Shown here: in pieces, positions 2,851-26,521 of the stretch
Layout: every line of letters starts with the position of its first letter
How positions within the stretch are numbered: position 1 is the stretch's first letter
Virus genome (UHGV): UHGV-1432856
Reading direction: 5' to 3' (one strand)
Source: a virus
DNA: 40,320 nucleotides
Notes under the pieces: model-generated
Told to the model about the DNA's origin: nothing
What the model saw: the letters and a program-made list of their open reading frames with translations, nothing else
Database searches by the model: none
Program-made: the position numbers and the translations under genes

Positions 2851-2855
2851 GGGAT

Positions 2856-3554: not shown

Positions 3555-3883
3555 CAGTTCACCACCTGTTCAAACTCTGCGCTGAACTCAACACGTAACA
3601 TACTGACCCGCGACGACCATTTTGCGCAGGTCACCTTTATCTGCCTGTAACCATAAGGCGGCGTCCACAGAAAGCCCTTCCAGCCCCCGTGCTCAGCCAG
3701 AAACGACTCCAGCGCTGTTGCCTCCTCGCGGGAGACAGAAAGCGTCACGCTGTACGTTTTCAGGTTGGCATTCAGCCCGGCAGGCGCTCGCTGGGAATAG
3801 CCATCACCAAAGCGCACCTTTCTTACAGAAGGGGCCGAAGCCACATCCATACCGGGTTTCACTTTCCAGCGGAAGGTTTTCAT
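3554..3883 (-). CDS. M: minor tail protein M
   Basis: 109 aa, MKTFRWKVKPGMDVASAPSVRKVRFGDGYSQRAPAGLNANLKTYSVTLS... matches lambda gpM; start overlaps H stop. Confidence 0.9.
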   Translation of the reverse strand: MKTFRWKVKPGMDVASAPSVRKVRFGDGYSQRAPAGLNANLKTYSVTLSVSREEATALESFLAEHGGWKGFLWTPPYGYRQIKVTCAKWSSRVSMLRVEFSAEFEQVVN

Positions 3884-6441: not shown

Positions 6442-6670
6442 ACCGGACTCCTCCTGCGATCCCTTCTGATACTGTCATCAGCATTACGTCATCCTCCGTC
6501 ATGTCCGCCACATCCGGGGAAGCGGGGATAACTTCTTTCCCATCCGGGCCAAAACGAACGCCTCCGGCAAGCCCTGCTGCTTTCTGCATCAGCACATCAT
6601 CTTCAGGCTCTTCGTCAGCCTCGCGCCGGTTCAGCAGACTGAAATCCAGCGGATGCATATCCGGATCGCT
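6434..6670 (-). pseudogene. T: 3' fragment of the T segment of the G-T tail assembly chaperone; 5' part and gene G missing
   Basis: Frame ends exactly 8 nt inside the H start, as lambda T does; the frame stays open only to 6721, and composition turns AT-rich above about 6670; where G, V and U should follow there are Mu-like genes instead. Confidence 0.55.
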
Positions 6671-6680
6671 GAAAAACAGG

Positions 6681-6814
<134 letters not shown>

Positions 6815-6842: not shown

Positions 6843-7232
6843 TTACTCTTTTTTCTCCGTATCTGCATCGGGTTCATCAGCAAATAGCTTGCCCTGCATC
6901 CGATCCAGTTCTTCTTTTCTTACCCGCTTAACCACGCTGTAGACCCACTGAAGCGAAACACCAAATTTGCGGGCCAGTTCGTGGTGGTTGCGTCCGTTAA
7001 ACTCCCTGAAGATTTCCCGGTCGCGCTGACTGACCTTCCATACCATGCCCATCGGGAAATAAACGTTTTGCCCGCCCCAGACCTGCATCATTCGGTTCGC
7101 GACGGCCTGACCAATCTGGTCGGCAACTTCGGGCTCAATATCAATAATCTCGCGAACGGTCTCAGAGGTATGCTGTGCCAGTTCCACCAGGAGTTCCGGC
7201 CCCTTACTTCGAAACTGATTCAGGTCGCTCAT
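6843..7232 (-). CDS. mor: Mor/C-family late transcription activator
   Basis: 129 aa (same length as Mu Mor); C-terminal HTH region FNGRNHHELARKFGVSLQWVYSVVKR resembles the Mor/C family; follows GemA as in Mu. Confidence 0.75.
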   Translation of the reverse strand: MSDLNQFRSKGPELLVELAQHTSETVREIIDIEPEVADQIGQAVANRMMQVWGGQNVYFPMGMVWKVSQRDREIFREFNGRNHHELARKFGVSLQWVYSVVKRVRKEELDRMQGKLFADEPDADTEKKE

Positions 7233-7653
7233 GTTTGACTCCCGCAGCTCTGCGCTGCCACTTCTTCAGTTTCTCAATAACACTGCTTGCCTGTTCAGTA
7301 CTGAGCCAGCGCAGGGCGCTGATGCCCGTTTCCCGCTTGATCCACCTCGCTAATGCATTTTCTGAACGGTCACGAACAATGCCGGCAGCAGCCATTTCAA
7401 GCCATAGCGCACGAATTTTCCTGGACTGCGGATGGTTATCCAGCGGTAAACCGGAGCTGGCTTTTCTGGCTGGTTTAACGCGAAAGCCTTTCTTTTTCAT
7501 GGATTCCAGCACGCAGTTTAGTTGTGTGGTATCCATTCCTTTGGTTGAGGCTTTACCGGTCAGCCCCTGTAACATCTGGCGGTAGGTGTCTTCATCCATA
7601 CCCAGTTCATTACGGGCAATATGGATAAGCTGTATCAGGCGTTTTTTCTGCAT
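7204..7653 (-). CDS. gemA: GemA-like protein (Mu gp16 family, DUF1018-like)
   Basis: N-terminal LIQLIHIARNELGMDEDTYRQML typical of Mu gp16/GemA; lies immediately upstream of the mor-like gene. Confidence 0.7.
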   Translation of the reverse strand: MQKKRLIQLIHIARNELGMDEDTYRQMLQGLTGKASTKGMDTTQLNCVLESMKKKGFRVKPARKASSGLPLDNHPQSRKIRALWLEMAAAGIVRDRSENALARWIKRETGISALRWLSTEQASSVIEKLKKWQRRAAGVKHERPESVSK

Positions 7654-7654
7654 A

Positions 7655-7861
7655 TCATCTCCTTTTTTTCAGTCTGTCGGCAACAATGTCGGTTGCAGCT
7701 GGCAGGGTGACTGGCCAGAACAACATGACGGCGGTCATGTACAGGATGTAATGCGCGGTGTCGTAGTGCCTGCCATAGCCCAGGGAACGATGAAGTCTTG
7801 CGCTGCATGATCCTGCGTACATATACCAGAAAAGAAAACAGACAATGGTTTCAGTAGTCAT
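7655..7861 (-). CDS. small hydrophobic protein (68 aa)
   Basis: ATG at 7859-7861 preceded by GGAGG at 7 nt spacing; hydrophobic segments; the longer track ORF 7655-8017 overlaps the next gene out of frame, so the shorter start is used. Confidence 0.45.
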   Translation of the reverse strand: MTTETIVCFLFWYMYAGSCSARLHRSLGYGRHYDTAHYILYMTAVMLFWPVTLPAATDIVADRLKKRR

Positions 7862-8081
7862 TCTGAATACCTCCCCATTCGATATGAATATTACGGGCAG
7901 CAATGACAGGGTCGTTATTCCACCATGCACCTGACATGTATTTTTCAACCTGTTCGCGTCCGGCAATAACACCAATTGTGATCCCCGGCCTGACGTTCTT
8001 AAAAAAGGCGCGGGCAAAAAGGTATCTGGCAGATATTCGGCAGGCTTTTAATTTCCGGCTGTTACCTGATAGCGTAATCAT
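7851..8081 (-). CDS. hypothetical early protein (76 aa)
   Basis: ATGA start/stop overlap with the upstream gene at 8078-8081, suggesting translational coupling in the early operon. Confidence 0.45.
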   Translation of the reverse strand: MITLSGNSRKLKACRISARYLFARAFFKNVRPGITIGVIAGREQVEKYMSGAWWNNDPVIAARNIHIEWGGIQNDY

Positions 8082-8761
8082 CTGGCCTCCAGTTTCTGTT
8101 GTTCCTGCCCACTGACCGGGCGGTGCAGTCTGACGTTCTGCCCTTCACGAAACCCCGCATAGCGCGAGGCGTCGCCATTGCGGCTTCTTCCCGGTTTACG
8201 CGCCCTGGTGGTTTGCGTTTGCGGGTATTTATGTTCCAGCCACTGTTGCATCAGTTCACGCTCATCATCGGTCAGGGCAAAGGACTGTATTTCACTGATA
8301 ACGGCCAGTACCCAGCCTTCAGCAAACTGGTTTCCACGGCTGGTACGGGTGGCGTTTTTTATTCTTTTGTTCTGTGCGCTGATATACTGCTGACGCGCCT
8401 TTTTCAGTTGGCGGACCAGCACTTCCCAGGTGTATGCAGCCAGTGCCGCTCGTTCCCGGTTACCGTAGAACCCCACAGACGGATGCGTGCCGGGGTGAAT
8501 GATGGAGTTAACACCAAATGCCTCGCGGATGATGTTCATCAGGCCCAGCATGTAGCGCGGTGGACGGAGACTGCCTGTCGGCCAGTAATGACTGATGGTT
8601 TCATCAATATCACTCATAGCAATGTCGGAATGTGTGATGCCGTGAACATCCATCAGTTTACGGGCTCGGCGCAGTGCCAGAGCGGCCTCGTGCGGGTTGC
8701 CGGATGCGGCCAGCGCCAGCAACTTTTTCAGTTTCTCAATGTGTTTATTCTGGTCTGTCAT
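8078..8761 (-). CDS. hypothetical early protein (about 227 aa; DUF2786-like N-terminus)
   Basis: Start taken at the Met (8759-8761) that forms an ATGA overlap with the upstream gene; KLKKLLALAASGNPHEAALALRRARKLM N-terminal motif; the track ORF extends to 8797. Confidence 0.5.
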   Translation of the reverse strand: MTDQNKHIEKLKKLLALAASGNPHEAALALRRARKLMDVHGITHSDIAMSDIDETISHYWPTGSLRPPRYMLGLMNIIREAFGVNSIIHPGTHPSVGFYGNRERAALAAYTWEVLVRQLKKARQQYISAQNKRIKNATRTSRGNQFAEGWVLAVISEIQSFALTDDERELMQQWLEHKYPQTQTTRARKPGRSRNGDASRYAGFREGQNVRLHRPVSGQEQQKLEAR

Positions 8762-8973
8762 TGTTCTGTATCTCCGGTATTTTTCTGCCGTTTCCATGCC
8801 CGGACAGCGTCGGACAGCTCTTTCAGGCTGTATGCTGCTTTAAGCTTTTCCCATAACCACTGTGTTGTTATGTGCATCAGCAGGGCAGCCAGGGCTGCCC
8901 CCGCACTGAGGCATGTCGCCAGGCCAGTAAGAATCAGTGTCCATGCGGTGATTTCCCTGAGTATGTCAGCCAT
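8758..8973 (-). CDS. small membrane protein (71 aa)
   Basis: Hydrophobic core WTLILTGLATCLSAGAALAALLM; GGGAGG ribosome-binding site upstream of the start. Confidence 0.45.
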   Translation of the reverse strand: MADILREITAWTLILTGLATCLSAGAALAALLMHITTQWLWEKLKAAYSLKELSDAVRAWKRQKNTGDTEQ

Positions 8974-8987
8974 TGAATGCCTCCCGG

Positions 8988-9284
8988 TTACTCGTTCGTG
9001 TAAATCACGCCCAGTCGTGCAGCCAGACGTTCCAGTTTTTTCTGTTTGTGGAAGTCAATCAGCCGGTCCATCCCCTGAAGGCGCAATTGCTCTGTCATGA
9101 TTTCCACGTCTGCCAGCTCTGCCGCGAGGTCACTTTCGCTGCCCTGTCCGTTCAGATTGCGGGCAGCACTGGCCGCCAGTTCAGCGGCCTCTTCTGTCAG
9201 TTTCAGGGCCTGTGCGTCCGGCCCGAAACGCTGCAGGGCCAGACGGTAGAGGGCGGTGCGGGTGAGTATGGTGTTCCGTGTCAT
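8988..9284 (-). CDS. small all-alpha protein, possibly MazG-like NTP pyrophosphohydrolase fold
   Basis: 98 aa with TEEAAELAA (EExxE-like) and ELADVEIMTEQL acidic motifs; GAGGG RBS; assignment tentative. Confidence 0.4.
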   Translation of the reverse strand: MTRNTILTRTALYRLALQRFGPDAQALKLTEEAAELAASAARNLNGQGSESDLAAELADVEIMTEQLRLQGMDRLIDFHKQKKLERLAARLGVIYTNE

Positions 9285-9293
9285 GCCGCGCCC

Positions 9294-9566
9294 TCAGTGC
9301 TTCCGGCTGACGGTGATGTGCAGGCCGCCTTCTGCAGTGGTTTCCATCCGGTACGGCACCTCATGCTCTGCCGTGTGGGTGAGTGTGTTCACCAGTACCT
9401 GCAGGGCAGCCGCCTTTCCGTTGGTCGCCACAATGGCCTGAGCGGCCATACTGATTAGTGCCGTCAGGACGTGCTTCACATCGGTGAGGTTGCGGCATTC
9501 ACACTCGTTGACATAGTGTTCAACAAGGGTTCGGGTGCGCTGTCGTGCTTCCTGTGGGGTAATCAT
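9294..9566 (-). CDS. hypothetical early protein (90 aa)
   Basis: ATGA overlap with the upstream gene at 9563-9566; no recognisable motif. Confidence 0.45.
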   Translation of the reverse strand: MITPQEARQRTRTLVEHYVNECECRNLTDVKHVLTALISMAAQAIVATNGKAAALQVLVNTLTHTAEHEVPYRMETTAEGGLHITVSRKH

Positions 9567-9757
9567 TGCGCGTCCTCCCTGTCAGGGCGGGAGAATTCCA
9601 TGACGGGCACGTCCGCCGAAAAATGCTGGCTGCAGTACGGGCAGACCAGGGTGACGCGTACCGCAGGGATGTGGTATTTACCGGACATCACGGCGATGGC
9701 GCTGTGAAAACGCAGGGCTGTTATATCCCTCTCGCACTGAATACATTTAAATATCAT
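9563..9757 (-). CDS. small zinc-ribbon-like protein (64 aa)
   Basis: Two CxxC pairs (CIQCER ... CPYCSQ); AGGAG RBS about 10 nt upstream of ATG. Confidence 0.5.
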   Translation of the reverse strand: MIFKCIQCERDITALRFHSAIAVMSGKYHIPAVRVTLVCPYCSQHFSADVPVMEFSRPDREDAQ

Positions 9758-9854
9758 AATTTAATTCTCCTCTGTTTCCGGCGTGCAGAAGCCCACGGCG
9801 CTGACGCTGGAATAAAAAAGAAAATGTTTTTATTAAATAATTAACGTGGTGTGT

Positions 9855-10385
9855 TTACTGCACATCCTGCTCAAAAGGAATTATTGAAAAATCCTCAATG
9901 TCGCTTTTAATGGAAATACCGGGAATATTTTTCACGGCCTCTTTTTCATTCAGGATAGCGTCTTTATTTATTTCCTCTTTTACACGAATAAAGCGCTCAA
10001 GCCCCAGACGTCTCAGTAATTCAATAACATTATCCGCCCCACGGATACTGACTGATGGCGGACGGTTTCGCCACTGCACCTCGCCGGTGGTGAGGTTAGC
10101 GAACTTCACCTTCCCGTTGCCGGTCAGTTCATCACGGTGTGCCTCACACCATGTCTGAATACCGGACTGCAGTTCGGCCATGCGTTTTTTCAGGCTCTCG
10201 GTGAGCGGGGCATAACGTGCGGTGATATCGCCAATGGCGTCATTCATTTCTGTTTCAGCCCTGACCAGTTCACGTTGTGCGTCACCGAGCAGTCTGATGC
10301 CCTCAATGACCTCTTCGCGTGTCCCCGGTACCCAGAGTGCCGCTGCGGACTTGATACGTTTTGCCCCTTTTGTACTTTTTGCCAT
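9855..10385 (-). CDS. gam: Gam-like host-nuclease inhibitor protein
   Basis: 176 aa; KRIKSAAA...ETEMNDAI...VRPPSVSIRG...GIEDFSIIPFEQ closely matches Mu Gam as recalled. Confidence 0.9.
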   Translation of the reverse strand: MAKSTKGAKRIKSAAALWVPGTREEVIEGIRLLGDAQRELVRAETEMNDAIGDITARYAPLTESLKKRMAELQSGIQTWCEAHRDELTGNGKVKFANLTTGEVQWRNRPPSVSIRGADNVIELLRRLGLERFIRVKEEINKDAILNEKEAVKNIPGISIKSDIEDFSIIPFEQDVQ

Positions 10386-10412
10386 ATTTTATGATTTCTC
10401 CGGTTGTGCTGA

Positions 10413-10682
10413 TTACCACAAAGATTCCGGCCACACGACGCGACAGCCGTGCAGTTCGAAAACGCCCTGACGGAAATGACCCCTGTGGTCATGACCGGTA
10501 TACAGATAACTGGCTTTCCCCTGTTCAAGCATGTGTATGCAATGCGCACTCCGGGAAACTCGGATGACAGGTTTATGGCCCCTGATGGTGATGCTCTGTA
10601 TATCCGTATTCGTCGCCTTAAGTGCCATAATGGCTGACTGCACTTTGTTAATCTGCTGGCTGATAACTGTGGTGGATTTCAT
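10413..10682 (-). CDS. hypothetical early protein (89 aa)
   Basis: Starts 2 nt after the B stop with AAAGGGG RBS; occupies the B-to-gam position where Mu carries small accessory early genes. Confidence 0.45.
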   Translation of the reverse strand: MKSTTVISQQINKVQSAIMALKATNTDIQSITIRGHKPVIRVSRSAHCIHMLEQGKASYLYTGHDHRGHFRQGVFELHGCRVVWPESLW

Positions 10683-10684
10683 TA

Positions 10685-11851
10685 TTAAACCCCTTTGACA
10701 ACGTCAGCATTGACCTGTGGAACCCCGATTTCAGCGGCCAGATTCATGGCGGCTATCACCAGGTTACTGACGGCCAGCGGATACAGCAGGCTGACCATAT
10801 TTTTACGATGACTTCCCGGATTGCTCAGGCGGGCACGTATGGCATCCACTGCGCTGGCGTCCATAATGTCCGTCAGTTGTTTACCGGCCCGTTGCAGTTT
10901 GAACGTCAGAAATTCTTCAAGGTTATTGTCCAGAGGCAGAAGTTCGACCACCTCACAGCGCTGAACGACTTCACGGACTTCCATATTGCGTTCAGACAGT
11001 TTTGTCGCCAGTTCCGGCTGGCCAATCAGCACGATGGACAGCAGTTTTTTGAAACCGGACTCCAGCTCAAAAAAGCGTTTGAGGTGTTTCAGTGTCGGAA
11101 TGGGCAGACTGTGGGCCTCCTCAATCACCAGAACGTGGCTGAACCCCGCCTGGCTGCTGTCTTTCAGGACGCGATGCAACTGGCGAAAGCGGGCGTCCTG
11201 ACTGCGTCTGATGCTTTCCAGTGGTGCGATGGTACTGATAATGGCTTCGGCAATCGCTGCTGCCTTCAGGGTTTTCCCTTTCACATCGTTGTCTTCCATA
11301 GCGATGATGTATGGCTCGATAACAATTACCGGCGCATTCTCGCGGTTGATACGTTCAGTCAGGTCGCGGCGCAGCGTGGATTTACCCGCACCGGACTCAC
11401 CGATGACGGCCATAAACCCACCATGACGGGCTGTCTGGTACAACGCCTCACGCACGTAGCGAATGTCCGGGGTGGTGAACACATCATCAGAACCCTGCAT
11501 GGCTTCGTCGGCGAACGGGTCACGGAAAAGACCAAACGCTTTTTTGGTTGCTGGAAATAACACCTGTTTTTTGAGTAACATATTCTCTTCCTCACTGAGG
11601 CTCGTTTTATCTGTGGTACCCGCTGTACGGGGCGTGGCCGCGCCCTGTACAGCATCAAAACTCTTCGTTGTATCAATCCCCTGACTTTCCAGCCAGGACG
11701 CAAGACGCCGGCGCACTTCTCCGGGGCTGGTGCGGGGCCACGCGTTATGATTCACAATCTGGGCCAGCGTGGCCTCAGAAACATCGACAGCTCTCGCCAC
11801 CACCGCCTGTGGAATACGGGCCTCTTTCAGTTGCTGCTTCAGTACCAGCAT
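10685..11851 (-). CDS. B: transposition ATPase B (AAA+ P-loop, N-terminal HTH)
   Basis: Walker A GESGAGKS, Walker B-like VLVIEEAH; immediately downstream of the transposase; start taken at the Met preceded by GAGGAGGG, 10 nt after the A stop. Confidence 0.8.
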   Translation of the reverse strand: MLVLKQQLKEARIPQAVVARAVDVSEATLAQIVNHNAWPRTSPGEVRRRLASWLESQGIDTTKSFDAVQGAATPRTAGTTDKTSLSEEENMLLKKQVLFPATKKAFGLFRDPFADEAMQGSDDVFTTPDIRYVREALYQTARHGGFMAVIGESGAGKSTLRRDLTERINRENAPVIVIEPYIIAMEDNDVKGKTLKAAAIAEAIISTIAPLESIRRSQDARFRQLHRVLKDSSQAGFSHVLVIEEAHSLPIPTLKHLKRFFELESGFKKLLSIVLIGQPELATKLSERNMEVREVVQRCEVVELLPLDNNLEEFLTFKLQRAGKQLTDIMDASAVDAIRARLSNPGSHRKNMVSLLYPLAVSNLVIAAMNLAAEIGVPQVNADVVKGV

Positions 11852-11861
11852 GTTTCCCTCC

Positions 11862-13631
11862 TCAGTTGCCGTTAACAATGCTGATAACACTGCTGCTGGC
11901 CGGTGTGGTCAGCGTGGCCATGACTTCATCCAGTGCGGCTTCCGGTACGCCGTCCGGGTACTGTGCCGTTAACTGGCGGTAATGTTCCGGCGTCCAGGTA
12001 AGGCCGTCGGCGCTGAACTTATCGCGCAGGGCTTTCGCGGCCTCCACATGAGTCATGGGACGTTGTTCAGTGCGCGGCCCGCGTACGTCAGAGGCCTGAC
12101 CACGCTTCGGCATATAGGCCGGAAGTGTGGTGTCGTCGATATGTTTATACGGGTCAAGCCGCCCGCCGAACGGCAGCGCCTTCGCCTTGCGTGCGGCGGC
12201 TGCATCTGCGGCGTTGTCTGTACCGGTAACCAGCGCTTCGGTTTCTTTTGCCGCCATCTGTGCCGGGGTTTCCGGCAGGGCTTTGTAACTTTCGCCAAAT
12301 ACCGCCGCGCCTTCAGCAAAGCCAAACTCGTTCTTTCTGACCTCTTCGACCAGGAAGAACGTCTCGTGGCCGTCCTCACCGGTCAGAACCACCTGTGCCA
12401 CATCGCTGCGCCATGGGTTACGGGTAATCATCAGTTTTTCACCAACCAGTACGCCCGGTACCGTTGATACGTCAAATTCAGTGCCCCGGAACGAGACACG
12501 AAGTTTTGGCGTGACTTTGCGGAGTTCTGGTGCCGCCACAGCCAGTTCATGACATACCTCAACGGAAGGCGCTTTTTTCAGCTGCTCAGCAGTAATCTTC
12601 AGCCAGATATCCGTGCGGGTTTTACCGTGGCGGCTGTGAACAGCCGTGGCGTTAAAGTGGCTGCGCCATTTCGCGGCCAGCGCGTTGAGTTCTTCCAGAC
12701 TGTGAACCGGCCGGAACTTCAGACCCGGCTCCAGCTTGCGTTCGATAATGTCTCGCGCCTTTTCCACCTGTCCGGTGGCGCGGGCGTTATGCGGCTTGTG
12801 CGCTATCAGGTCGATGCCCAGTGAGCGGCACATGTTTTTCGTCATACCCGCGGTGTTTGCCGAGCCGGGGTCGAGATAGAGTATTTTTGGCACGCCGTGC
12901 AGCACGTCTGCGCCGCCACGCTCCTGCATGGCGTTGATAAGCACAGAACACAGGTTCTCACCTGATTCCGCGCCCGTCACATACTCAACGTAAATCCAGC
13001 CGCTGGCATGGTCGGTAATCTCGTAACTCCACACGCGGTCACTGGCGATACGGGCAAGGTTAGCGGGCTTGTTCTTGTAGAACTTCGCGCTGTCCATCAC
13101 CTGCAGCCCTTTATGTCCATTGCTCAGGTAGTAAAGCGTGCAGAGTGAGGCGTCAATCTGCCAGACATGATTGGGGTGCAGACTGGCCACTTCGGTATGC
13201 GGTGCAGGAGCATCCAGTTGTTCCGGGTGCAGGCCATAGTTACGCAGAGCACGGCTGATGGCATCTTCAGACAACGGGAAAAACTCACCGGTGGTTTCAT
13301 CTGTTCTGCCTGCGGTGATAAAGCCGTTAGCCCGCAGGGTTTCCACTGCATCTGCGATGGAATAGAGGCGCTTACCGTTCTTGCGGGTGGCCTCACGCAG
13401 TGTGGCAGATATCAGCGCGGCTTCGTCGCGGGTCAGGGCGCTGCGTCCGGCATCAGCGCGTTTTTTGCGTTTATCAGTCACAGAGACCTCCTTCAGCCTG
13501 CGCAGCAGAGTGGCGCGGGACATGCCAAGTTCAGCACAGGCAGCGTCGTATATTGCACCGCGTTTACCATGCCCCGCGTCACGTGCCGCGCGGGCGACAT
13601 AAACCAGTCGTTCAGTCAGGGCAGCATTCAT
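11862..13631 (-). CDS. A: DDE transposase (phage A-type, integrase-core fold)
   Basis: 589 aa; candidate catalytic triad HVWQIDAS / YLDPGSAN / GQVEKA (D, D, E); paired with the B ATPase. Confidence 0.85.
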   Translation of the reverse strand: MNAALTERLVYVARAARDAGHGKRGAIYDAACAELGMSRATLLRRLKEVSVTDKRKKRADAGRSALTRDEAALISATLREATRKNGKRLYSIADAVETLRANGFITAGRTDETTGEFFPLSEDAISRALRNYGLHPEQLDAPAPHTEVASLHPNHVWQIDASLCTLYYLSNGHKGLQVMDSAKFYKNKPANLARIASDRVWSYEITDHASGWIYVEYVTGAESGENLCSVLINAMQERGGADVLHGVPKILYLDPGSANTAGMTKNMCRSLGIDLIAHKPHNARATGQVEKARDIIERKLEPGLKFRPVHSLEELNALAAKWRSHFNATAVHSRHGKTRTDIWLKITAEQLKKAPSVEVCHELAVAAPELRKVTPKLRVSFRGTEFDVSTVPGVLVGEKLMITRNPWRSDVAQVVLTGEDGHETFFLVEEVRKNEFGFAEGAAVFGESYKALPETPAQMAAKETEALVTGTDNAADAAAARKAKALPFGGRLDPYKHIDDTTLPAYMPKRGQASDVRGPRTEQRPMTHVEAAKALRDKFSADGLTWTPEHYRQLTAQYPDGVPEAALDEVMATLTTPASSSVISIVNGN

Positions 13632-13634
13632 TGG

Positions 13635-14549
13635 TTATGCCTCCAGCCCGTTAATCTGTGGCGTCGGCTCAGTCAGCCATGAAGGCGCGGCATTGCCTGT
13701 TGGCTCATCCGGCAGGTCAAATGTGGAGCGCAGGCTACGCGCTGTGCTTTCCAGTTGACAGACCAGGCCTGCCATGAAGTCTCTGGGGGTATCAATCATG
13801 TTTTCAGCACAATATGCGCACAGCGTCTCAAAAGCGCTGGACAGTCGAACGGCGATAGCAGATTCCGCCTCAACCGCTAATGCTGTCACTTCCGCCCGCA
13901 GCTTCTTAACCTCTTCATCAGGCTCAGGCGGCTGAATACGGGATTTCTTCTCCAGTCTGGTGGAGAGTGAGTCTATTTTTTCATTTTTGTCAGCGAGTAC
14001 GCGCTGTTGTGCTGCGTTGGTTTCGCGCGCTTCGCGCAGGGCCTGACGCAATTCACGTACTGACATGCGATCAACGTCGTCAAGCGTCAGGCCGGCAACT
14101 GTGCCGCCGTCGGCCAATTCATCAAGTTCTTCATTATCCAGAACCATCAGGTCGTACAGTTTGGCTTTCCCCAAAACGCTCAACGTTGAGCGTTTTGTTG
14201 GCTCATCACCTTCTCCCAAAAACTTCATACTGGCTTGCATCATGCGGCGAGCAACTTGTGGTGCAAGTCCGAGTTCATTTTCTAAAATGTTTGTAAAATC
14301 ACCGTGTGGCTCATTTTCTTTTAAGATGATCAGCCGCTTACCCGCTTCCAGCATAGATTCAGCACTCTGCGCCATATAAAAACGTGCTTCGTGAACAATG
14401 CGATCACGTTCATAAGGCAGTCCATCACCAAACTGCTGCATAATTTCCATGCGATGCTGTGTCATAGCGTTCAAATTGACATTGATGTTATCTGACAGCG
14501 GAACCTCAACATTCAGTTCAGTGTTAACGGGTGATTTGGTGCGTCCCAT
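13635..14549 (-). CDS. acidic coiled-coil protein (DUF3102-like) of unknown function
   Basis: 304 aa, tightly packed between the wHTH gene and the transposase; domain assignment from memory only. Confidence 0.55.
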   Translation of the reverse strand: MGRTKSPVNTELNVEVPLSDNINVNLNAMTQHRMEIMQQFGDGLPYERDRIVHEARFYMAQSAESMLEAGKRLIILKENEPHGDFTNILENELGLAPQVARRMMQASMKFLGEGDEPTKRSTLSVLGKAKLYDLMVLDNEELDELADGGTVAGLTLDDVDRMSVRELRQALREARETNAAQQRVLADKNEKIDSLSTRLEKKSRIQPPEPDEEVKKLRAEVTALAVEAESAIAVRLSSAFETLCAYCAENMIDTPRDFMAGLVCQLESTARSLRSTFDLPDEPTGNAAPSWLTEPTPQINGLEA

Positions 14550-14559
14550 TGATTACTCC

Positions 14560-14868
14560 TTACAAACGACTACCTGAAATAACTCGTTGGTTGATTTCGT
14601 TAATACGATCCTGTGCACGCGCCATCTCGTGACTGTGAGCCATGGCGATCTGTAGTAACTGGATTCCCGGTGCGAAACGTCCGTTCTCTAATTTCATGGC
14701 CAGTCCCTCTTCAATAAGGGTATTAAGTGCTCGATTGATATTCGCCGGGGACTCCCCCAGGGCTGATGCCAGTTCACCGTTAGAAACACCGTTCAGAGCA
14801 TGACCGCGTAGAGCTTTGAGTACACGTAGGATGCGGGTCCCAGAACTGGAAATATTTACTTTACTCAT
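14560..14868 (-). CDS. winged-helix DNA-binding protein (IclR-N/MarR-like HTH)
   Basis: LRVLKALRGHALNGVSNGELASALGESPANINRALNTLIEEG HTH pattern; start taken at MSKVNISS (14866-14868); the track's longer start at 14931 would overlap the upstream gene. Confidence 0.5.
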   Translation of the reverse strand: MSKVNISSSGTRILRVLKALRGHALNGVSNGELASALGESPANINRALNTLIEEGLAMKLENGRFAPGIQLLQIAMAHSHEMARAQDRINEINQRVISGSRL

Positions 14869-14920
14869 GTCACATTTCCATTTTTGCAATATGTGATAAC
14901 CTGTTGCATATGTGGAAAAT

Positions 14921-15109
14921 TTATGCCGCATTTGACGTGGGTTTTAATCCCAGTTTTACGGCAATTTCATGGGCTTTGCCGTAACGAGCTTTGGTCTGTC
15001 CATTGAGAACACGATAGACCTCATTGCGGCTGTAGCCGTGTTCTTCGGCCCAGCGGGTAAACGTGATACCACGCTGACGGAAGAGATTTTTAACTTGTTC
15101 GGAAGTCAT
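14921..15109 (-). CDS. small HTH DNA-binding protein in the Cro/Ner position
   Basis: 62 aa, first gene of the leftward operon, divergent from the XRE repressor; AGGAG RBS; not clearly homologous to Mu Ner, assigned by position and HTH-like pattern. Confidence 0.55.
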   Translation of the reverse strand: MTSEQVKNLFRQRGITFTRWAEEHGYSRNEVYRVLNGQTKARYGKAHEIAVKLGLKPTSNAA

Positions 15110-15159
15110 TGTTGTCTCCTTTGTTGATGCAATGATGTTTGTTTTATATGTGATAGATT

Positions 15160-15179
15160 ATGAGAACTATTGTTCTCAT
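15160..15179. promoter_or_regulatory. putative operator: inverted repeat ATGAGAAC-TATT-GTTCTCAT
   Basis: Perfect 8-bp arms with 4-bp spacer, inside the 86-bp divergent region between the Cro/Ner-like and repressor genes. Confidence 0.45.
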
Positions 15180-15195
15180 TGTCAATGAGGTTTAT

Positions 15196-15621
15196 GTGAA
15201 TTTTGATTCTCTTTGCGCGTCGCGGTTCAAAGCTGAGCGTTCGCGGTTATCACTCAAGCAGGCTGAAGTAGCAGCCCTTTGTGGCGTTTCAAGAGAAATG
15301 TGGGGGAAATATGAACGAGGGGTTGCTGTTCCCGGAGGTGAGTTACTTGCAGCCTTTGCAAGAATTGGGGCCAATGTACAGTTCATTCTTACCGGGGAGT
15401 CATCAGGTATAACTTTATCACGTGATGAAATGGAGTTACTGCAGCACTACCGGCAGGCACCATTACAGGTCAAAGGTTCAGTTTTGTCGGCCTTGACTAC
15501 TGGCTCCTCCAGAGAACGGGCGGAACAGGTTATTCATGGAGATGTTCTGGGGAATGTTATCAAAGGTAACGTAACCATAGGAACAGGTGGAATAATGAAC
15601 AAAAATACCAAGAGAAGATGA
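15196..15621 (+). CDS. XRE-family HTH transcriptional regulator, probable prophage repressor
   Basis: HTH LSLKQAEVAALCGVSREMWGKYERG; start placed at GTG 15196 (GAGG at 5 nt spacing); the track ORF starts at ATG 15160 inside the palindrome; divergent from the early operon. Confidence 0.65.
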   Translation: MNFDSLCASRFKAERSRLSLKQAEVAALCGVSREMWGKYERGVAVPGGELLAAFARIGANVQFILTGESSGITLSRDEMELLQHYRQAPLQVKGSVLSALTTGSSRERAEQVIHGDVLGNVIKGNVTIGTGGIMNKNTKRR

Positions 15622-16604
15622 GTAAAGAGAAGCAAACAGTTAACGGGGATGTGGGTAACGTTGTCAGCGGTGATGTTACCATTCATAACTATTCTGCTGA
15701 CATACTTCCTTCGGCCCAGCAACCAATTTCGTTGCTGCAAAAACGCGATTTACACAGATTGATGGATGAATTGGTTGATCTGGGGGAAAGTAAGCGCGAG
15801 CTATGGATGACGATCCACACGAAACTTAATACCAAAACAGTTAATGAAATGACTGCGGCTGATTATCATGGTGCGGTTGAGATCCTTCAGAGATATGCAC
15901 AACAGATCCAGAATATGAAGGACTGTAATCTTCTGGTCAGCAAAATAATGGCGCTTACTGACCCTGGGTATCGTCTTGACCGTGACAGATACTGTCTGAA
16001 GCATTTCGGTACAACCCATCTTAAAGGCCTAGACAAAGAGCAGTTGCAGGCTGTGTTTGGTTATTTTGATGATCTGCTGAATATTCGTGATGAGAGTAAA
16101 ACTCTATCACCTCCATCGGAAAGCGGTGCAAAATCAGTCGCAACTGTACCAACCAGAAGCCGGAAGCCTCATGTAGTAGTGTTGGGGGGAGTGTTAGTTC
16201 TTGTAGCAATATTTTTCGTGGGAATGATTGTGTTCGCTGGTAAATGGGGAAATGCCAAAGCAGTAGCTTCTACTGAAACCAGCGTTTTTAACATTAAAAC
16301 CAACGATAAAATAATAGAAGATTCCATCCCCGCACTGCGCAGCATGTTTCCAGGGTTAAATAAGTACTCAGATGATTTCCATTCGGTTTCAAGCTACAAG
16401 CAAAAAACGGGCTGGCATACCCTTAAATTTACTGTATCAGCAAAGGCATCCGTCCCCGAAAATTATAGTGTTAAGGGCAAGGTTTGTTACATTAACATAA
16501 GCCCTGATGGTAGTTATGCTCGGGTTTTGACTGCTCCATGTCGTTCACTGCTACTTGATCAGCAAAGCACTCCTGACAGTAAATACCGTTTTATTCTTAA
16601 ATAG
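15618..16604 (+). CDS. single-pass membrane protein of unknown function, translationally coupled to the repressor
   Basis: 328 aa; ATGA overlap with the repressor stop; one TM helix (VVVLGGVLVLVAIFFVGMIVFA) between a roughly 185-aa N-terminal and 120-aa C-terminal domain; N-terminal GDV/GNV repeat; AT-rich. Confidence 0.6.
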   Translation: MSKEKQTVNGDVGNVVSGDVTIHNYSADILPSAQQPISLLQKRDLHRLMDELVDLGESKRELWMTIHTKLNTKTVNEMTAADYHGAVEILQRYAQQIQNMKDCNLLVSKIMALTDPGYRLDRDRYCLKHFGTTHLKGLDKEQLQAVFGYFDDLLNIRDESKTLSPPSESGAKSVATVPTRSRKPHVVVLGGVLVLVAIFFVGMIVFAGKWGNAKAVASTETSVFNIKTNDKIIEDSIPALRSMFPGLNKYSDDFHSVSSYKQKTGWHTLKFTVSAKASVPENYSVKGKVCYINISPDGSYARVLTAPCRSLLLDQQSTPDSKYRFILK

Positions 16605-16694
16605 AAAATAACAGCTGAATTACCATGGGATCAGAAAAAAGACAAAGGCGGCATCATGCTGCGTTCTGAAATTTTAATGTAAAAGGTGATGAAC

Positions 16695-17276
16695 ATGGCA
16701 GGGATTCAGGTTATCGCAGGAAGTTTTCCTAAAGGGTGGGCAAGCATGGGGTTCGGTACCATCGTGTTTGCCAAAAAACCAAAACAAGGCTTTCCTGAAA
16801 ATATTGTATTAAATCTGAAAGAAGAGCTTTTATCGATTGAACTTGCGGATAGTGAAGAGGAAAGCCGTATAGGTAAGGCGGCAGGCGCAGGTTTGCTTGG
16901 TGGATTAATCTTTGGTGGTGCAGGGTTGGTCATTGGAGGTTTGCTTGGTGCGGCGGACAAGACGAAAAAAACTATCACTTTTAAGGCAATGTTTACGGGA
17001 AATAGGTTACTTCTGGCTAAAACAGATTCAAAAACTTTTGTAAAACTTCAGTCAATTGCTGCTGATAATGCCCATAACGCATCTGTAATCAACATGAAGC
17101 AAACTAACAGGGGCGATGTTTCTTCTCGTAAACAACTAACAGAAAATCCACAGCAGCAAGACTTACCTGCGCCCGCTACAACAGTAAAAATGACTGCCAA
17201 AGATAAGTTAGAATCGGCTCTTGGGCTGGGAATCATCGTTATAGCTGTTTGGGCAATAATACACTTCTTTTTTTAG
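16695..17276 (+). CDS. glycine-zipper membrane protein of unknown function
   Basis: GKAAGAGLLGGLIFGGAGLVIGGLLGAA glycine zipper plus C-terminal hydrophobic helix LGLGIIVIAVWAIIHFFF; start chosen at ATG 16695 (AGGTG upstream); AT-rich. Confidence 0.55.
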   Translation: MAGIQVIAGSFPKGWASMGFGTIVFAKKPKQGFPENIVLNLKEELLSIELADSEEESRIGKAAGAGLLGGLIFGGAGLVIGGLLGAADKTKKTITFKAMFTGNRLLLAKTDSKTFVKLQSIAADNAHNASVINMKQTNRGDVSSRKQLTENPQQQDLPAPATTVKMTAKDKLESALGLGIIVIAVWAIIHFFF

Positions 17277-17278
17277 TG

Positions 17279-17302
17279 CAGCCCTTCAGGGCTGTTTCTG
17301 TT
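17279..17302 (+). terminator. Rho-independent terminator ending the repressor-linked cassette
   Basis: CAGCCC-TTCA-GGGCTG hairpin followed by TTTCTGTT, 3 nt after the stop at 17276. Confidence 0.5.
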
Positions 17303-17313
17303 CAGGAGGTATC

Positions 17314-17790
17314 TTAAGGATTATCCGGGGCGTTTTCCTGTTTGCCGTACTTCGGAGACGAACAACATTCTGTTGGCTGACCGGTGAGTTTACGTAACTC
17401 CTTCATGAGCAGCTCCTGATCGTAAACTGTCATCAGTGCCGCAATGGTGGCATGCAGTGCATCGGGCAGTATCCAGGGTTGCCGGCCCGTGGGGCATATA
17501 ACATCCAGCAGCTCATTCGTCCGACAGATACGCTCCTCGCCGTATGACAACAGGCCCTGTCCCGTGTATTCCTCCAGCCTGATCACTGTGCCACCCCGTG
17601 GCTTCTGCCAGGTCGTCAGATCTTCGCCATTCATACGGCGCTCATTCTCCACGTCAGCAGCATCGACAATGACGCTGTTTCCGAGTTCCTGTTTCACCAT
17701 CTCTTCTATCCGCGCCAGTACGTAACTTTTACCGCTGCCCACAGGACCGGACACAGTGACAGTGATGACCGGATTCAGTGTGTGCGTCAT
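17314..17790 (-). CDS. small P-loop protein, NMP/shikimate-kinase-like
   Basis: 158 aa; Walker A GPVGSGKS at residues 15-22 followed closely by VIVDAADVE, resembling small P-loop kinases; strong GAGGAG RBS; convergent with the cassette. Confidence 0.55.
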   Translation of the reverse strand: MTHTLNPVITVTVSGPVGSGKSYVLARIEEMVKQELGNSVIVDAADVENERRMNGEDLTTWQKPRGGTVIRLEEYTGQGLLSYGEERICRTNELLDVICPTGRQPWILPDALHATIAALMTVYDQELLMKELRKLTGQPTECCSSPKYGKQENAPDNP

Positions 17791-17849
17791 ATCGTATTCT
17801 CCTCTGTGAATAATTCATCGTTTATCCTGCACATCCCGTATCCCCGGCT

Positions 17850-17870
17850 CTCTTAACGCGCTTTAAAATC
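17850..17870 (+). promoter_or_regulatory. degenerate copy of the late-region motif, upstream of the lysis genes
   Basis: CTCTTAA-CGCG-CTTTAAAATC, about 50 nt upstream of the ATG at 17921; compare 31232-31253 and 37583-37604. Confidence 0.3.
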
Positions 17871-17920
17871 CTTCGCGCCCTGTATTTGTGATGCTGTCTC
17901 CACCAGATAAGGAGACACAC

Positions 17921-18214
17921 ATGAAAAACCTGAAAAAATTCATTCCCCCTGTTAAAAAACCTCGCCTCAGCGGCTGGCTGCTGACCTCAGTGCTGTTGCT
18001 GGGCACCATCGCTCTGGTCTCACCACAGCAGCTGCCTGTTGTGATCTACAAGCTGGCACTCATCACGCTGGCAGCAGTGCTGGGTTACTGGCTTGACCGT
18101 TCGCTCTTCCCCAAAGCCCGTCCCGGTCAGTACCTGAAACATGACGACAGGCTGATGGCTGAAGGGCGTTTCCCGGTACAGACCGGCCTTCACCTGGTGT
18201 TTTCTGCTGCGTAA
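17921..18214 (+). CDS. small two-TM membrane protein, putative holin
   Basis: Start MKNLKKF with AAGGAG RBS; two hydrophobic helices; directly upstream of the endolysin; the track ORF starts at 17888. Confidence 0.45.
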   Translation: MKNLKKFIPPVKKPRLSGWLLTSVLLLGTIALVSPQQLPVVIYKLALITLAAVLGYWLDRSLFPKARPGQYLKHDDRLMAEGRFPVQTGLHLVFSAA

Positions 18215-18273
18215 ATCCGCCGTGCACTGATTGTTGCAGCGGTCTGCCTGGCTGTTGCGATGGGGCTTTAATC

Positions 18274-19014
18274 ATGAACTGGCCGCAGATCACCTGGATT
18301 GTATGCATGTCCCTGAAACTGGCTTTCGAAGCCTTTCGGGTCTTCATCAGAACCGAACGCCTGTCAGTCCGCGCCGGGACCTTTCTGGTTCATATGGCAT
18401 GGGTATTCTTTGTCGCAATGTTGCTCTGGTGTGGCGGCTTTTTTAGCCAGGCATGCGCAGCACAACCTCCGCAGGCTGCGCTGCAGTATCGCGATGATGT
18501 GATCCGTAATGCCCGGCTTGAATGGGGACTGTCTGCGCCGGTGGCCGATTTCGCCGCGCAACTGCATCAGGAAAGCGGCTGGCGACCTGATGCGATCTCG
18601 CCGGCTGGCGCTCAGGGACTGGCGCAGTTCATGCCTGCCACTGCCGACTGGATAAGCCAGTTGATACCGATGCTGAGCAGTCGTGAGCCGTTTAATCCGG
18701 CATGGGCTATCCGGGCGCTGGTCAGCTATGACCGCTGGCTGTGGCAGCGTGTCAGCGCCGCCAGTGACTGCGAGCGTATGGCCATGACACTGTCGGGCTA
18801 TAACGGTGGTCTGGGCTGGGTACAACGGGACAGGCGGCTTGCATCACAGAAAGGTCTGGACAGCACCCGCTGGTTCGGACATGTCGCCACGGTGAATGCC
18901 GGACGCAATGCGGCCAGCTGGCGGGAGAACCGCCATTATCCGCAGCGCATCCTGCGCGAACTGGCACCGCGATATCTCACATGGGGAGGCAGCAGTTGTG
19001 TGGCATCTGGTTAA
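18274..19014 (+). CDS. endolysin, lytic transglycosylase (SLT domain) with N-terminal hydrophobic anchor or signal
   Basis: SLT-like motif AQLHQESGWRPDAISPAGAQGLAQFMP; N-terminal hydrophobic stretch; start uncertain (18274 or 18394). Confidence 0.7.
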   Translation: MNWPQITWIVCMSLKLAFEAFRVFIRTERLSVRAGTFLVHMAWVFFVAMLLWCGGFFSQACAAQPPQAALQYRDDVIRNARLEWGLSAPVADFAAQLHQESGWRPDAISPAGAQGLAQFMPATADWISQLIPMLSSREPFNPAWAIRALVSYDRWLWQRVSAASDCERMAMTLSGYNGGLGWVQRDRRLASQKGLDSTRWFGHVATVNAGRNAASWRENRHYPQRILRELAPRYLTWGGSSCVASG

Positions 19015-19648
19015 AAAGCTGCCGTGGCGCGGCATTCTGCTGGCCATTCTTATCAATGCCTTTCTGGTCGGCCTGTATGCCATGGGATACAGAAGTGGTC
19101 ATGACTCTGCAAAGCGTGACGGTGATACCGCGCTCAGTCAGTTGCAGTCAGCATTTGACGCGTACAAAACGGAGCAGGCAACGCTTGAGAATGCTGCGCT
19201 GCGGGCCTGGGCCAGACGGTATCAGGAGCAGGTGGCCGCCGGGCAGCGGGCTGAAGCCGGTTATCTTGAGCAGATTGCTCAACTGGAGAGCCGGAATAAA
19301 CAACTACAGGGGCAAATTAACGATGTCACACAGCGCTGGATTGATGAAAAAGGTAAGAGCCATCCCATTGAGTGCGTGTTTACTCGCGGTTTCGTGCGCC
19401 AGTACAACGCCGCACTCGGATATGACAACGCATCCGTCGACACCGGTCATTCAGACTCAGTTGCCGCCGCTGGCACCCGCTCTGGCACAGCGACCGGGCA
19501 ACCTGAAACCACTGACACCCGGTTACGCGATTCGGGTGTCTCCCAGCGTGACGTTCTCGCCAACATCATCGACAACGCAGGACAATGTCGTCGCTGGCGG
19601 AACCAGATAAACGCGTTACTGGATGAACGGGAAGGATTACAGAAATGA
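18998..19648 (+). CDS. i-spanin (Rz-like)
   Basis: GTG start with GGGGAGG RBS; N-terminal TM (ILLAILINAFLVGLYAMGY) then coiled-coil periplasmic domain; contains an embedded lipoprotein ORF. Confidence 0.6.
   Translation: MWHLVKKLPWRGILLAILINAFLVGLYAMGYRSGHDSAKRDGDTALSQLQSAFDAYKTEQATLENAALRAWARRYQEQVAAGQRAEAGYLEQIAQLESRNKQLQGQINDVTQRWIDEKGKSHPIECVFTRGFVRQYNAALGYDNASVDTGHSDSVAAAGTRSGTATGQPETTDTRLRDSGVSQRDVLANIIDNAGQCRRWRNQINALLDEREGLQK
19344..19610 (+). CDS. o-spanin (Rz1-like lipoprotein) embedded in the i-spanin gene
   Basis: MKKVRAIPLSACLLAVSCAS signal peptide with lipobox, proline-rich mature part, in the +1 frame wholly inside the i-spanin gene. Confidence 0.55.
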   Translation: MKKVRAIPLSACLLAVSCASTTPHSDMTTHPSTPVIQTQLPPLAPALAQRPGNLKPLTPGYAIRVSPSVTFSPTSSTTQDNVVAGGTR

Positions 19649-19971
19649 CACTGCAGGTTGAATTCTGGACGGTGGTGAGTTTTCTGCTCACCTTCATGGG
19701 GTTTGTGGGAGGGCTCGCCAAATGGTTGTTCAGTAAAACAGAAGAACGCCAGGCGGCACGATTCGCCTCCCTTGAACAGGCCCTGCAACAATCCGCCTCC
19801 AACTGGGGCGAGCTGGAAAAAGAATTTATGCGATTTAAAGCGGATTTACCGCTGAATTATGTCCGTCGAGAGGATTATATCCGTGGCCAGACAGTCATTG
19901 AGGCCAAACTGGACGCGCTTTATAACAAACTGGAAGTGGTACAGCAGTACCGCAATACCGGAGGTCAATAA
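19645..19971 (+). CDS. small membrane-anchored protein (Mu gp25 position)
   Basis: N-terminal TM FWTVVSFLLTFMGFVGGL, then helical region; start overlaps the previous stop. Confidence 0.5.
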   Translation: MTLQVEFWTVVSFLLTFMGFVGGLAKWLFSKTEERQAARFASLEQALQQSASNWGELEKEFMRFKADLPLNYVRREDYIRGQTVIEAKLDALYNKLEVVQQYRNTGGQ

Positions 19972-20282
19972 TGGTCGATATTACCCGGGTACGCCGCGAA
20001 TCCCTGCGCTGGAGTCTGCTGGTTGCCCTGAACAAGACCCGCCCTTACACCGCCAGCGAGACGCTGCTGCTGGATGTGTCCCGTGCCATCTACCCGGACA
20101 CCACACCGCTGGAACTGCGCCGCGAACTGGATTATCTGGCTGACCGTAAAATGGTTGATCTGGAGAAAAAACCTTCTGGCGACTGGTTTGCTGACCTGAC
20201 CCGCCTCGGCGTAGACCTGGTGGAATACACCGTGGAATGTGGTCCGGGTATTGCCCGCCCGGAAAAGTACTGGAGTGAATAA
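19971..20282 (+). CDS. hypothetical protein (Mu gp26 position)
   Basis: 103 aa; overlapping start/stop with neighbours; by synteny only. Confidence 0.45.
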   Translation: MVDITRVRRESLRWSLLVALNKTRPYTASETLLLDVSRAIYPDTTPLELRRELDYLADRKMVDLEKKPSGDWFADLTRLGVDLVEYTVECGPGIARPEKYWSE

Positions 20283-20827
20283 TGGCCAGACGCAGCACAA
20301 TAGAAAAGCTGCCGGAAGATGTGCGCCGCTGGCTTGAACGGGCGCTGACTGAATCCGGCTTCAGCGGGTATAACGAGCTGGAGTCCCTGCTGCGTGAGCG
20401 GGGGTACGTCATCAGCAAATCCGCTATCCATCGCTATGGACAGAAGATTGAGCGCCGCTATGGTGCTATCCGTGCGGCAACAGAAGCGGCCCGCATGCTG
20501 ACCGAAGGCGCAGCAGACGATCAGGATGCGCGTTCGGAGGCTGTGATAGCCCTTATTCAGACCGAGCTGTTCGAGAGTATTGTCCAGTTGCAGGAGGCGG
20601 AAGAAGGCGAAGTCGATCCTAAAGAACGCGTGGCCCTGCTGTCGAAGGTGGCGAAGAATGTGGCTACGCTGTCCCGCGCGTCCGTCAACCTCAAAAAGTT
20701 CCAGTCTGAAGTACGGGCCAGAGCGCAGCAGGCAGCCAGCAACGCCGAGAAAATTGCCCGTAAGGGGGGACTGTCAAGCGACGCAGTACAGGCGCTTCGT
20801 CGCGAGATTCTGGGGATTGCCACATGA
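20282..20827 (+). CDS. Mu gp27-like DNA-binding protein, putative small terminase subunit
   Basis: 181 aa; MARRSTIEKLPEDVRRWLERAL N-terminus typical of gp27-like proteins; immediately upstream of the large terminase. Confidence 0.55.
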   Translation: MARRSTIEKLPEDVRRWLERALTESGFSGYNELESLLRERGYVISKSAIHRYGQKIERRYGAIRAATEAARMLTEGAADDQDARSEAVIALIQTELFESIVQLQEAEEGEVDPKERVALLSKVAKNVATLSRASVNLKKFQSEVRARAQQAASNAEKIARKGGLSSDAVQALRREILGIAT

Positions 20828-23828: not shown

Positions 23829-23867
23829 ACACGGACGATCTGCAGGAACGGCTGGCCCGTATTCTCT

Positions 23868-24716: not shown

Positions 24717-24718
24717 CA

Positions 24719-25177
24719 ATGGCTTCCGATAACCTGGTCAGTATCACCATTAACGATAAATCCCTGCGCCGGAGCCTCCGTGCGCTGGATCTTGCTGCCA
24801 CAGACCTGGAGCCCGCGATGCGCAAAATCGCCGGAACCCTGCTGGCGGAAACACAGTTTAACTTTCTTGATGAGGGGCGTCCGGGGTGGATCCCCTCGCT
24901 GGCAGCGGAAGAACGTGACGGGCAGACACTGCAGGATACCGGGCGTCTGATGGGGTCAGTATCAACCGACCATGACGACCGGCAGGCTGTTGTGGGGACC
25001 AACGTTGTTTACGGTGCCATTCACCAGTTCGGGGGTAAAACGGGGCGTAATGAGTCTGTTGAACTTCCGGCCCGCCCGTTCCTGCCGGTGACGGGGGATG
25101 GAGAACTACAGCCTGAAGTGGTAATCCCCATCCTCGATACCATTGTCCGCCATCTTGAATCAGCGGCCCGTCGCTGA
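24719..25177 (+). CDS. virion morphogenesis protein (Mu G-like)
   Basis: 152 aa; synteny (after F, before I). Confidence 0.55.
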   Translation: MASDNLVSITINDKSLRRSLRALDLAATDLEPAMRKIAGTLLAETQFNFLDEGRPGWIPSLAAEERDGQTLQDTGRLMGSVSTDHDDRQAVVGTNVVYGAIHQFGGKTGRNESVELPARPFLPVTGDGELQPEVVIPILDTIVRHLESAARR

Positions 25178-26507: not shown

Positions 26508-26521
26508 TTTAAGGAGAGAGC

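Follow-up and report, generated by a model that had tools for sequence, protein, structure and literature searches.

Organization of the element

The virus genome UHGV-1432856 was analysed as one stretch of 40,320 nucleotides, which we call the window. From position 6681 to beyond position 40320 it holds a BcepMu-type transposable (Mu-like) prophage, and we are highly confident that its genes stand in their native order. The element is built of two arms that point away from each other. The left arm starts at a control region (15110-15195), extends from the gene at 14921-15109 down to the mor gene at 6843-7232 and proceeds leftward to the element end at 6681. The right arm lies on the plus strand, carries the repressor, lysis, head and tail genes and continues to the window end. 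At the interface the gp16-like and gp17-like genes diverge at 15109/15160, which is the two-cluster arrangement of BcepMu-like phages. The rightward arm is interrupted by a minus-strand accessory gene at 17314-17790.

The order of the leftward operon is that of the early operon of Mu: a small helix-turn-helix (HTH) protein, the transposase, the ATPase, gam, gemA and mor. The operon terminates at the left transposon end. In the right arm a lysis cassette is followed by Mu-like head genes and P2-like tail genes; the sheath and tube proteins are 76% and 66% identical to gp39 and gp40 of BcepMu. Beyond gene G, capsid and contractile-tail genes occupy the plus strand up to the window end. The listing of open reading frames (ORFs) and the domain scans agree with the preliminary description of the window, which placed the early operon on a leftward course and the repressor, lysis and morphogenesis genes on a rightward one.

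Comparison with BcepMu, Mu and closer relatives

Of 48 predicted proteins of the element, 37 have homologues in BcepMu (NC_005882), in the same order and on the same strands. In both phages the Mor/C gene (gene 1 of BcepMu) lies on the bottom strand beside the left end, followed by GemA and, further in, the ATPase, the rve transposase, gp10, gp12 and gp16. Across the interface, on the other strand, come gp17, the holin, the SLT endolysin, Rz, gp25, gp26, the small terminase and the genes onward. Both also share a TGA tip and two GMGATAWWT repeats. Protein identity between the two phages is 31-76%. By blastn, all 15 high-scoring segment pairs (HSPs) lie on the same strand and cover 29.5% of the element at a mean identity of 67.7%, a product of about 20%. 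BcepMu carries genes 1-13 on its bottom strand and 17-52 on its top strand, with genes 16/17 for lysogeny control at the interface, and BcepMu-like viruses have a Tn552/IS1604-type transposase, P2-like tails and CA termini (PMC2771037). The layout is therefore already known, having been published for this group of phages.

The element and BcepMu differ in parts of their gene content. The middle of the early arm holds a Mu-type Gam and seven small genes in the element, and SSB-like, HU-like, DUF3164 and pyrophosphatase genes in BcepMu. The accessory genes that follow the repressor also differ. At the right end, the complete prophage of Escherichia coli AR_0015 (NZ_CP024862; L005 below), which is 99.6-99.8% identical to the window over the shared length, has an invertible-type tail fibre segment with a recombinase, while BcepMu has an acyltransferase and is reported to lack an inversion system. 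In L005 this segment spans 35309-39642; its tail fibre and fibre-assembly genes are opposed, and it includes a gene for a serine recombinase (38992-39564), an arrangement like the G region of Mu.

The nearest phage is PhiKM (PQ738613), with 96-99% nucleotide identity by megablast, and it is listed by NCBI under Bcepmuvirus. Klebsiella phage KP12 and Escherichia phage Phi06_2974 B follow at about 85-89% (megablast). PhiKM and L005 have the same gene order as the window and differ from it in insertion site, which in the window is a lambdoid tail gene.

Mu (NC_000929) is more distant in organization. Eleven window proteins match Mu proteins, among them Gam (62%), GemA, Mor/C, gp27, the large terminase (49%), the portal, F and G, and both are transposable phages with TG...CA ends. 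In Mu the repressor gene c is on the minus strand and the genes from ner to the late genes are on the plus strand, except gp15 and the alternative G-segment genes, so Mu is one-directional as had been stated. Aligned with both phages, the element is collinear with BcepMu, and its repressor-to-mor block is inverted against its late genes when set beside Mu. Mu employs two activators, Mor and C, in three transcription phases. The features of Muvirus (Mu, D108, SfMu), namely collinear early, middle and late genes with Mor plus C, and MuA plus MuB, are absent from the element, the latter two by BLAST at E 1e-3. Its tail genes are P2-like, unlike those of Mu. The target duplication is 6 bp in relatives of the element and 5 bp in Mu. 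Collinearity, same-strand HSPs, the listing of PhiKM and the published account of BcepMu-like phages (PMC2771037) all support the earlier suggestion that the organization is of BcepMu type rather than Mu type.

Transposon ends and distribution

The junction between lambdoid sequence and the element is at 6680/6681, and the element starts with TGATTAGACTTGAGATAAAT. The same tip and the same repeat positions as at this left end are seen at both BcepMu ends and at the right end of L005. The end pattern has no other occurrence in the window; a second end-like sequence inside the element, which had been named as the sign of a rearrangement, was thus looked for in the window and not found. Two relatives with clean junctions show TG...CA ends and 6-bp duplications, TGAAGG between grxA and ybjC and GATAGA within dcuC. 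In L005, one TG...CA pair and a 6-bp duplication enclose both arms, a total of 37,566 bp.

About one in nine complete E. coli genomes (637 of 5426) carries the transposase, with up to three copies per genome. Among the matches listed, the left ends adjoin different host genes. In IMG/VR, 546 stretches encode a related transposase. The best 80 of these 546 were examined (transposase 66-100% identical), and all 80 have the same gene order and strands; 57 of them show both arms, and all 57 are alike. From the ends, the relatives and the spread of the transposase we conclude that the layout is ancestral in a widespread transposable-phage group that occupies many sites, and is no rearrangement. Recent papers mention Bcepmuvirus prophages in E. 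coli as well as gut phages of the genus that are inducible. The prophage of E. coli N196 is internally deleted and was excluded from the end analysis. In E. coli NR3838 (L006/L007), which has several copies, the left end abuts rimK and a right end abuts aroA, with no target duplication; this suggests a chromosomal rearrangement by recombination between phage copies.

Two points weigh against reading the element as a native prophage of this type. The nucleotide similarity to BcepMu is low, about 20% as identity times coverage, and TG...CA ends with repeats are visible in the window at the left end only, the right end being beyond the window; in L005, which is 99.6% identical, both ends conform. 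In ICTV practice a genus is delimited at about 70% nucleotide identity over the genome. With about 20% to BcepMu itself, the element falls outside a strict Bcepmuvirus.

Annotators should not treat this layout as a Mu that is rearranged or defective; it is the standard form of a group of transposable phages. The modest addition made by the window is a testable regulatory map, in which a single early promoter and its putative operator are joined by four candidate Mor sites, and a copy that has jumped into a tail gene of a resident lambdoid prophage. The candidate Mor regulon is the sole part that might be new.

A single Mor/C-family activator

A hidden Markov model (HMM) of four proteins (Mu Mor, Mu C, BcepMu gp1 and the one from the window) was searched against all six-frame segments of at least 30 residues. 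It finds one match in the window (E 5e-57), and the runner-up has an E value of 0.43. There is also one match each in L005, PhiKM and BcepMu, and two in Mu, which served as positive control. The claim that only one Mor/C-family gene is present therefore holds. The window protein scores 147.8 bits against PF08765 (cut-off 24.9) and covers profile positions 1-107 of 107, C-terminal DNA-binding region included. It is 54% identical to BcepMu gp1, 30% to Mu Mor over 109 residues and 37% to Mu C over 79 residues, roughly equidistant from the two Mu proteins.

Candidate Mor-dependent late promoters

Four gaps of the late arm contain the sequence TTAA-N6-TTAAWATC, followed after exactly 19 nt by a -10-like hexamer NAWRCT. 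Each forms a 16-bp dyad with 5-bp arms around TTAA and a GC-rich 6-bp spacer, located 22 nt upstream of the -10-like hexamer. Four matches to the pattern occur in the window where 0.08 would be expected; each is intergenic and on the plus strand. The promoter scan detects no sigma-70 promoter above chance in 19000-38000, and the four gaps show no good -35/-10 promoter. Terminator-like hairpins lie just upstream of sites 2 and 3, the one before site 3 at 31215-31230.

The sites are conserved in relatives. Site 1 is kept before the holin gene in relatives whose holin is as little as about 65% identical; its spacer varies in sequence. At site 2 the element, the 19-nt interval and NANNNT are present in 42 of 49 distinct upstream regions of relatives whose gene I is 48-100% identical; flanks and spacer sequence diverge there, while the spacer length is held. 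Site 4 is kept in 30 of 33 distinct upstream regions, and the remaining three are displaced coding sequence from truncated loci. In BcepMu, related sites occur at three of the four corresponding gaps, including TTAGCCGGCTTTAATATC at the V/W junction that corresponds to site 4, and a weaker partial match is found at the tube/gp41 gap.

In the Mu middle promoter Pm, Mor acts at an element of 16 bp made of 5-bp inverted repeats and a GC-rich spacer of 6 bp; its centre is at -43.5, and it replaces the -35 element (PMC4390567). The core of site 2, TAAAGCNGNTTAA, is also present in Pm: its single occurrence in the Mu genome falls between mor and E18, the location of Pm. The distance from the Pm element to its hexamer TATCCT is 22 nt, equal to that of the four window sites.

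These features suggest a regulatory scheme for the element. The repressor would bind the 34-bp dyad that covers the early promoter. Upon induction the 8.3-kb early operon would be transcribed from the sigma-70 promoter, and Mor would be made last. Mor would then bind the four sites and recruit RNA polymerase, as Mu Mor does at Pm, and would turn on four late units: lysis and early head genes, protease to tail tube, tape measure to V, and W to fibres. Such a cascade would have two steps and no C step, and the distal position of mor would give the delay that C supplies in Mu. We propose tentatively, from sequence comparison and as a view that falls a little short of evenly balanced, that in the BcepMu lineage a single Mor directly switches on four Pm-like late promoters, with the length of the operon replacing the C step. 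A search of the searchable literature, in which the original BcepMu paper is not covered, yielded no description of such a Mor regulon.

Several observations count against this proposal. A weight matrix made from the four sites ranks the V/W site first in BcepMu but does not place Pm first in the Mu genome; it leans on flanking bases peculiar to the lineage, and the shorter core pattern served in its place. The late-site pattern itself comes from the very four sites that it was used to count, which leaves the relatives and Mu Pm as the sole independent support. At site 4, transcription would start at or next to the start codon of W, leaving no leader, and the -10-like hexamer sits in the loop of a conserved hairpin; for these reasons it is the weakest of the four, and it may have another role. 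Finally, the winged-HTH protein at 14560-14931 or other regulators of the early arm could act on the late genes.

The alternative in which the layout is native, the TTAA-N6-TTAA sites are not Mor promoters (for instance nucleoid-protein or transposition-related sites) and late genes are controlled otherwise draws on site 4 and the matrix result, and on the fact that Mor action at the four sites is read from sequence. We consider it unlikely, though it deserves some weight. It conflicts with the position, strand and spacing of the sites, which are fixed relative to the -10-like hexamers, and with the hairpins directly upstream of two of them. It also conflicts with the persistence of the elements in relatives whose flanks diverge, and with the core and geometry that they have in common with the Mor site of Mu Pm, which was defined by experiment.

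Two hairpins lie near these sites. One, with a T run after it, is located at 25221-25262 (18730-18765 in L002) in the gap between G and the protease gene, and a 16-nt stretch within it, TTTATAAAGGCTTTAC, is identical in BcepMu despite a nucleotide similarity of only about 20% overall. In Mu this gap is the location of the strong gyrase site. The hairpin of the element may simply be a terminator. The other, with a 7-bp stem, is at 37611-37638 (GGGGGCA ATAC TGCCCCC) and abuts the W start codon, where no obvious ribosome-binding site is seen. At the W start BcepMu has a different sequence that is also hairpin-capable (GCGGC ... GCCGC). A leaderless or structured start of gene W is a possibility.

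Alternatives to a native layout

The preliminary description had offered as its alternative an inversion that would leave the prophage defective. Spelled out, a Mu-type prophage would have had its early arm inverted, with early, middle and late genes uncoupled and a defective remnant as the result. Some data fit. The repressor-to-mor block is inverted with respect to the late genes when compared with Mu, the single opposite-strand nucleotide HSP to Mu agrees with it, and this copy has two lesions of inactivating type. However, the identical arrangement is found in BcepMu, PhiKM, the complete E. coli prophage and all 57 two-arm IMG/VR relatives, and every relative that can be judged has this layout. 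The end next to mor is a true terminal repeat end of the BcepMu kind, and no internal end-like sequence was found in the window. By BLAST at E 1e-3 neither the transposase nor the ATPase matches MuA or MuB, which gives no reason to assume a Mu-type ancestor. Both lesions are point changes unrelated to orientation. We regard an inversion as very improbable and abandon this part of the preliminary description.

That the two arms are unrelated neighbours, a Tn552-like transposon with regulators next to a P2/Mu-hybrid prophage, diverging only by adjacency or assembly, is hardly credible: the transposon-type transposase (rve; Tn552/IS1604 family in PMC2771037), the P2-like tail genes and the low-GC island between the arms would suit it, but the single TG...CA pair with its 6-bp duplication in L005 encloses both arms, the arms occur together in all 57 informative relatives and in deposited phage genomes, and the sole late activator is in the left arm while its candidate sites are in the right arm.

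Features of the early arm and the control region

The native two-arm element has the features listed in Table 1. In the early arm, the seven small genes have no BcepMu or Mu homologues at E 1e-3 and are kept in L005 and PhiKM. No BcepMu counterpart of Gam was found by protein comparison. The ATPase is 59% identical to BcepMu gp8 and is unmatched by BLAST to MuB (Mu gp4) at E 1e-3; likewise the transposase is 68% identical to BcepMu gp9 and unmatched to MuA (Mu gp3). The intrinsic terminator scan found none after mor.

Table 1. Position and strand of features identified in the window
Feature	Position	Strand	Remarks
Left transposon end	6681-6723	+	5'-TGA tip; transposase-binding-type repeats GAGATAAAT (6692-6700) and GAGATATTT (6715-6723)
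Mor/C-family activator	6843-7232	-	Pfam Mor PF08765, E 1e-43; last gene of early operon
GemA homologue	7204-7653	-	Pfam GemA, E 8e-41; BcepMu gp2 44%, Mu gp16 36%
Seven small early genes	7655-9757	-	Includes DUF2786/DUF7168 protein, 8078-8797
Gam host-nuclease inhibitor	9855-10385	-	Pfam Phage_Mu_Gam, E 1e-40; 62% identical to Mu Gam
Transposition ATPase, ExeA/AAA_22 type, MuB position	10685-11890	-	Pfam AAA_22; PHROG 296, DNA transposition protein
DDE (rve) transposase	11862-13631	-	rve is the sole Pfam match
DUF3102 protein, gp10-like	13635-14549	-	Among first three early-operon genes
Winged-HTH regulator, gp12-like	14560-14931	-	Among first three early-operon genes
HTH protein, gp16-like, Ner/Cro position	14921-15109	-	Among first three early-operon genes
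Predicted early promoter, sigma-70, leftward	15153-15186	-	-35 TTGACA 15185-15180, 17-nt spacer, -10 CATAAT ending 15157
cI-type repressor candidate, gp17-like	15160-15621	+	Pfam HTH_31/HTH_3; 39% identical to BcepMu gp17
Low-GC accessory island	15618-17790	mixed	Genes 15618-16604 (+), 16686-17276 (+), 17314-17790 (-)
Terminator-like hairpin	17278-17295		Follows plus-strand accessory genes; terminator scan
Candidate late promoter 1	17853-17895	+	TTAACGCGCTTTAAAATC, 19 nt, GATGCT; upstream of lysis and head genes
Holin	from 17888 (ORF listing) or 17921 (RefSeq mapping)	+	PF13272
SLT endolysin	18274-19014	+	
Rz-like protein	18998-19648	+	
gp25-like protein, conserved small gene	19645-19971	+	
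gp26-like protein, conserved small gene	19971-20282	+	
Packaging/head block, small terminase through G	20282-25177	+	
Small terminase, Mu gp27 type	20282-20827	+	
Large terminase	20824-22419	+	
Mu-type portal	22419-23828	+	Frameshifted near 23770
Mu F homologue	23868-24716	+	
Candidate late promoter 2	25319-25361	+	CTAAAGCAGATTAAAATC, 19 nt, CAAACT; upstream of protease/scaffold (Mu PI position)
Candidate late promoter 3	31236-31278	+	TTAATCTCCTTTAATATC, 19 nt, CATACT; upstream of tail chaperone and tape measure
Candidate late promoter 4	37587-37629	+	TTAAACGCCTTTAATATC, 19 nt, AATACT; upstream of baseplate W

The predicted early promoter is strong and close to consensus, scores 11 of 12 in the promoter scan and points away from the repressor gene. 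Both of its hexamers are inside an imperfect palindrome of 34 bp at 15153-15186, with 15-nt arms that are 80% complementary; on its sequence this palindrome is a plausible operator. Within the annotated repressor ORF a GAGG-N5-GTG is found at 15187-15198. The repressor is more likely to begin there, at GTG 15196, since the early promoter overlies ATG 15160 and has its -35 hexamer within the annotated start of the ORF. ATG 15160 is the repressor start used in RefSeq relatives. A start at GTG 15196 gives a protein of 141 residues, compared with 138 for BcepMu gp17.

The GC fraction is 0.43-0.49 across 15000-17800 versus about 0.57 elsewhere. All three genes of the accessory island belong to PHROGs of unknown function. 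PADLOC gives no convincing defence-system match for the accessory genes, with a marginal one (E 0.007-0.01) only for the protein of 17314-17790. Rfam and tRNA scans give no matches. At the position of the island PhiKM has other content, an immunity and accessory segment of its own including a Dam methylase.

Insertion site and state of this copy

Positions 1-6680 of the window belong to a lambdoid prophage and make up its tail module, which lies on the minus strand and has J (running off the left end), I, K, L, M, H and T. The element is inserted in T, a tail gene, a short way upstream of H, which encodes the tape measure (3880-6441, minus strand), and the insertion probably disables tail assembly of the lambdoid prophage. 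The same lambdoid/Mu-like junction is not present in any complete E. coli genome of the collection. If the insertion is native, the right end should read ...GCGCGGCGCATCA; next would come AACAGG, which is the 6-bp sequence directly before 6681, and the remainder of lambdoid gene T. The inserted phage has its early operon directed into H, M, L, K, I and J, which share its strand. ORFs on the plus strand at 59-1511 match no Pfam family and are probably spurious, since the lambda J-type frame on the minus strand runs off the left end there.

Two genes of the right arm carry private point changes in this copy. In the holin gene, a change of TTA to TAA at 18212-18214 cuts the protein at codon 98 of 116 in comparison with L005 and PhiKM. 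This stop codon is private to the window, as TTA is found in all 15 relatives that share the flanking 25-mer. In the portal gene, a 1-bp deletion in an A run at 23765-23775 (GAAAACGG to GAAACGG, compared with L005 and PhiKM) shifts the frame of the C-terminal residues, about 47 in number. Sequencing error might explain either the nonsense change or the frameshift. Should they be genuine, phage production may suffer, independently of the gene layout.

Internal tandem-type repeats are seen in the tape-measure gene (33597-34149) and in the tail fibre gene (39879-40320). Between the window and L005 the tape-measure gene differs by roughly one repeat unit of 260 bp, and the L005 gene is called a pseudogene in RefSeq.

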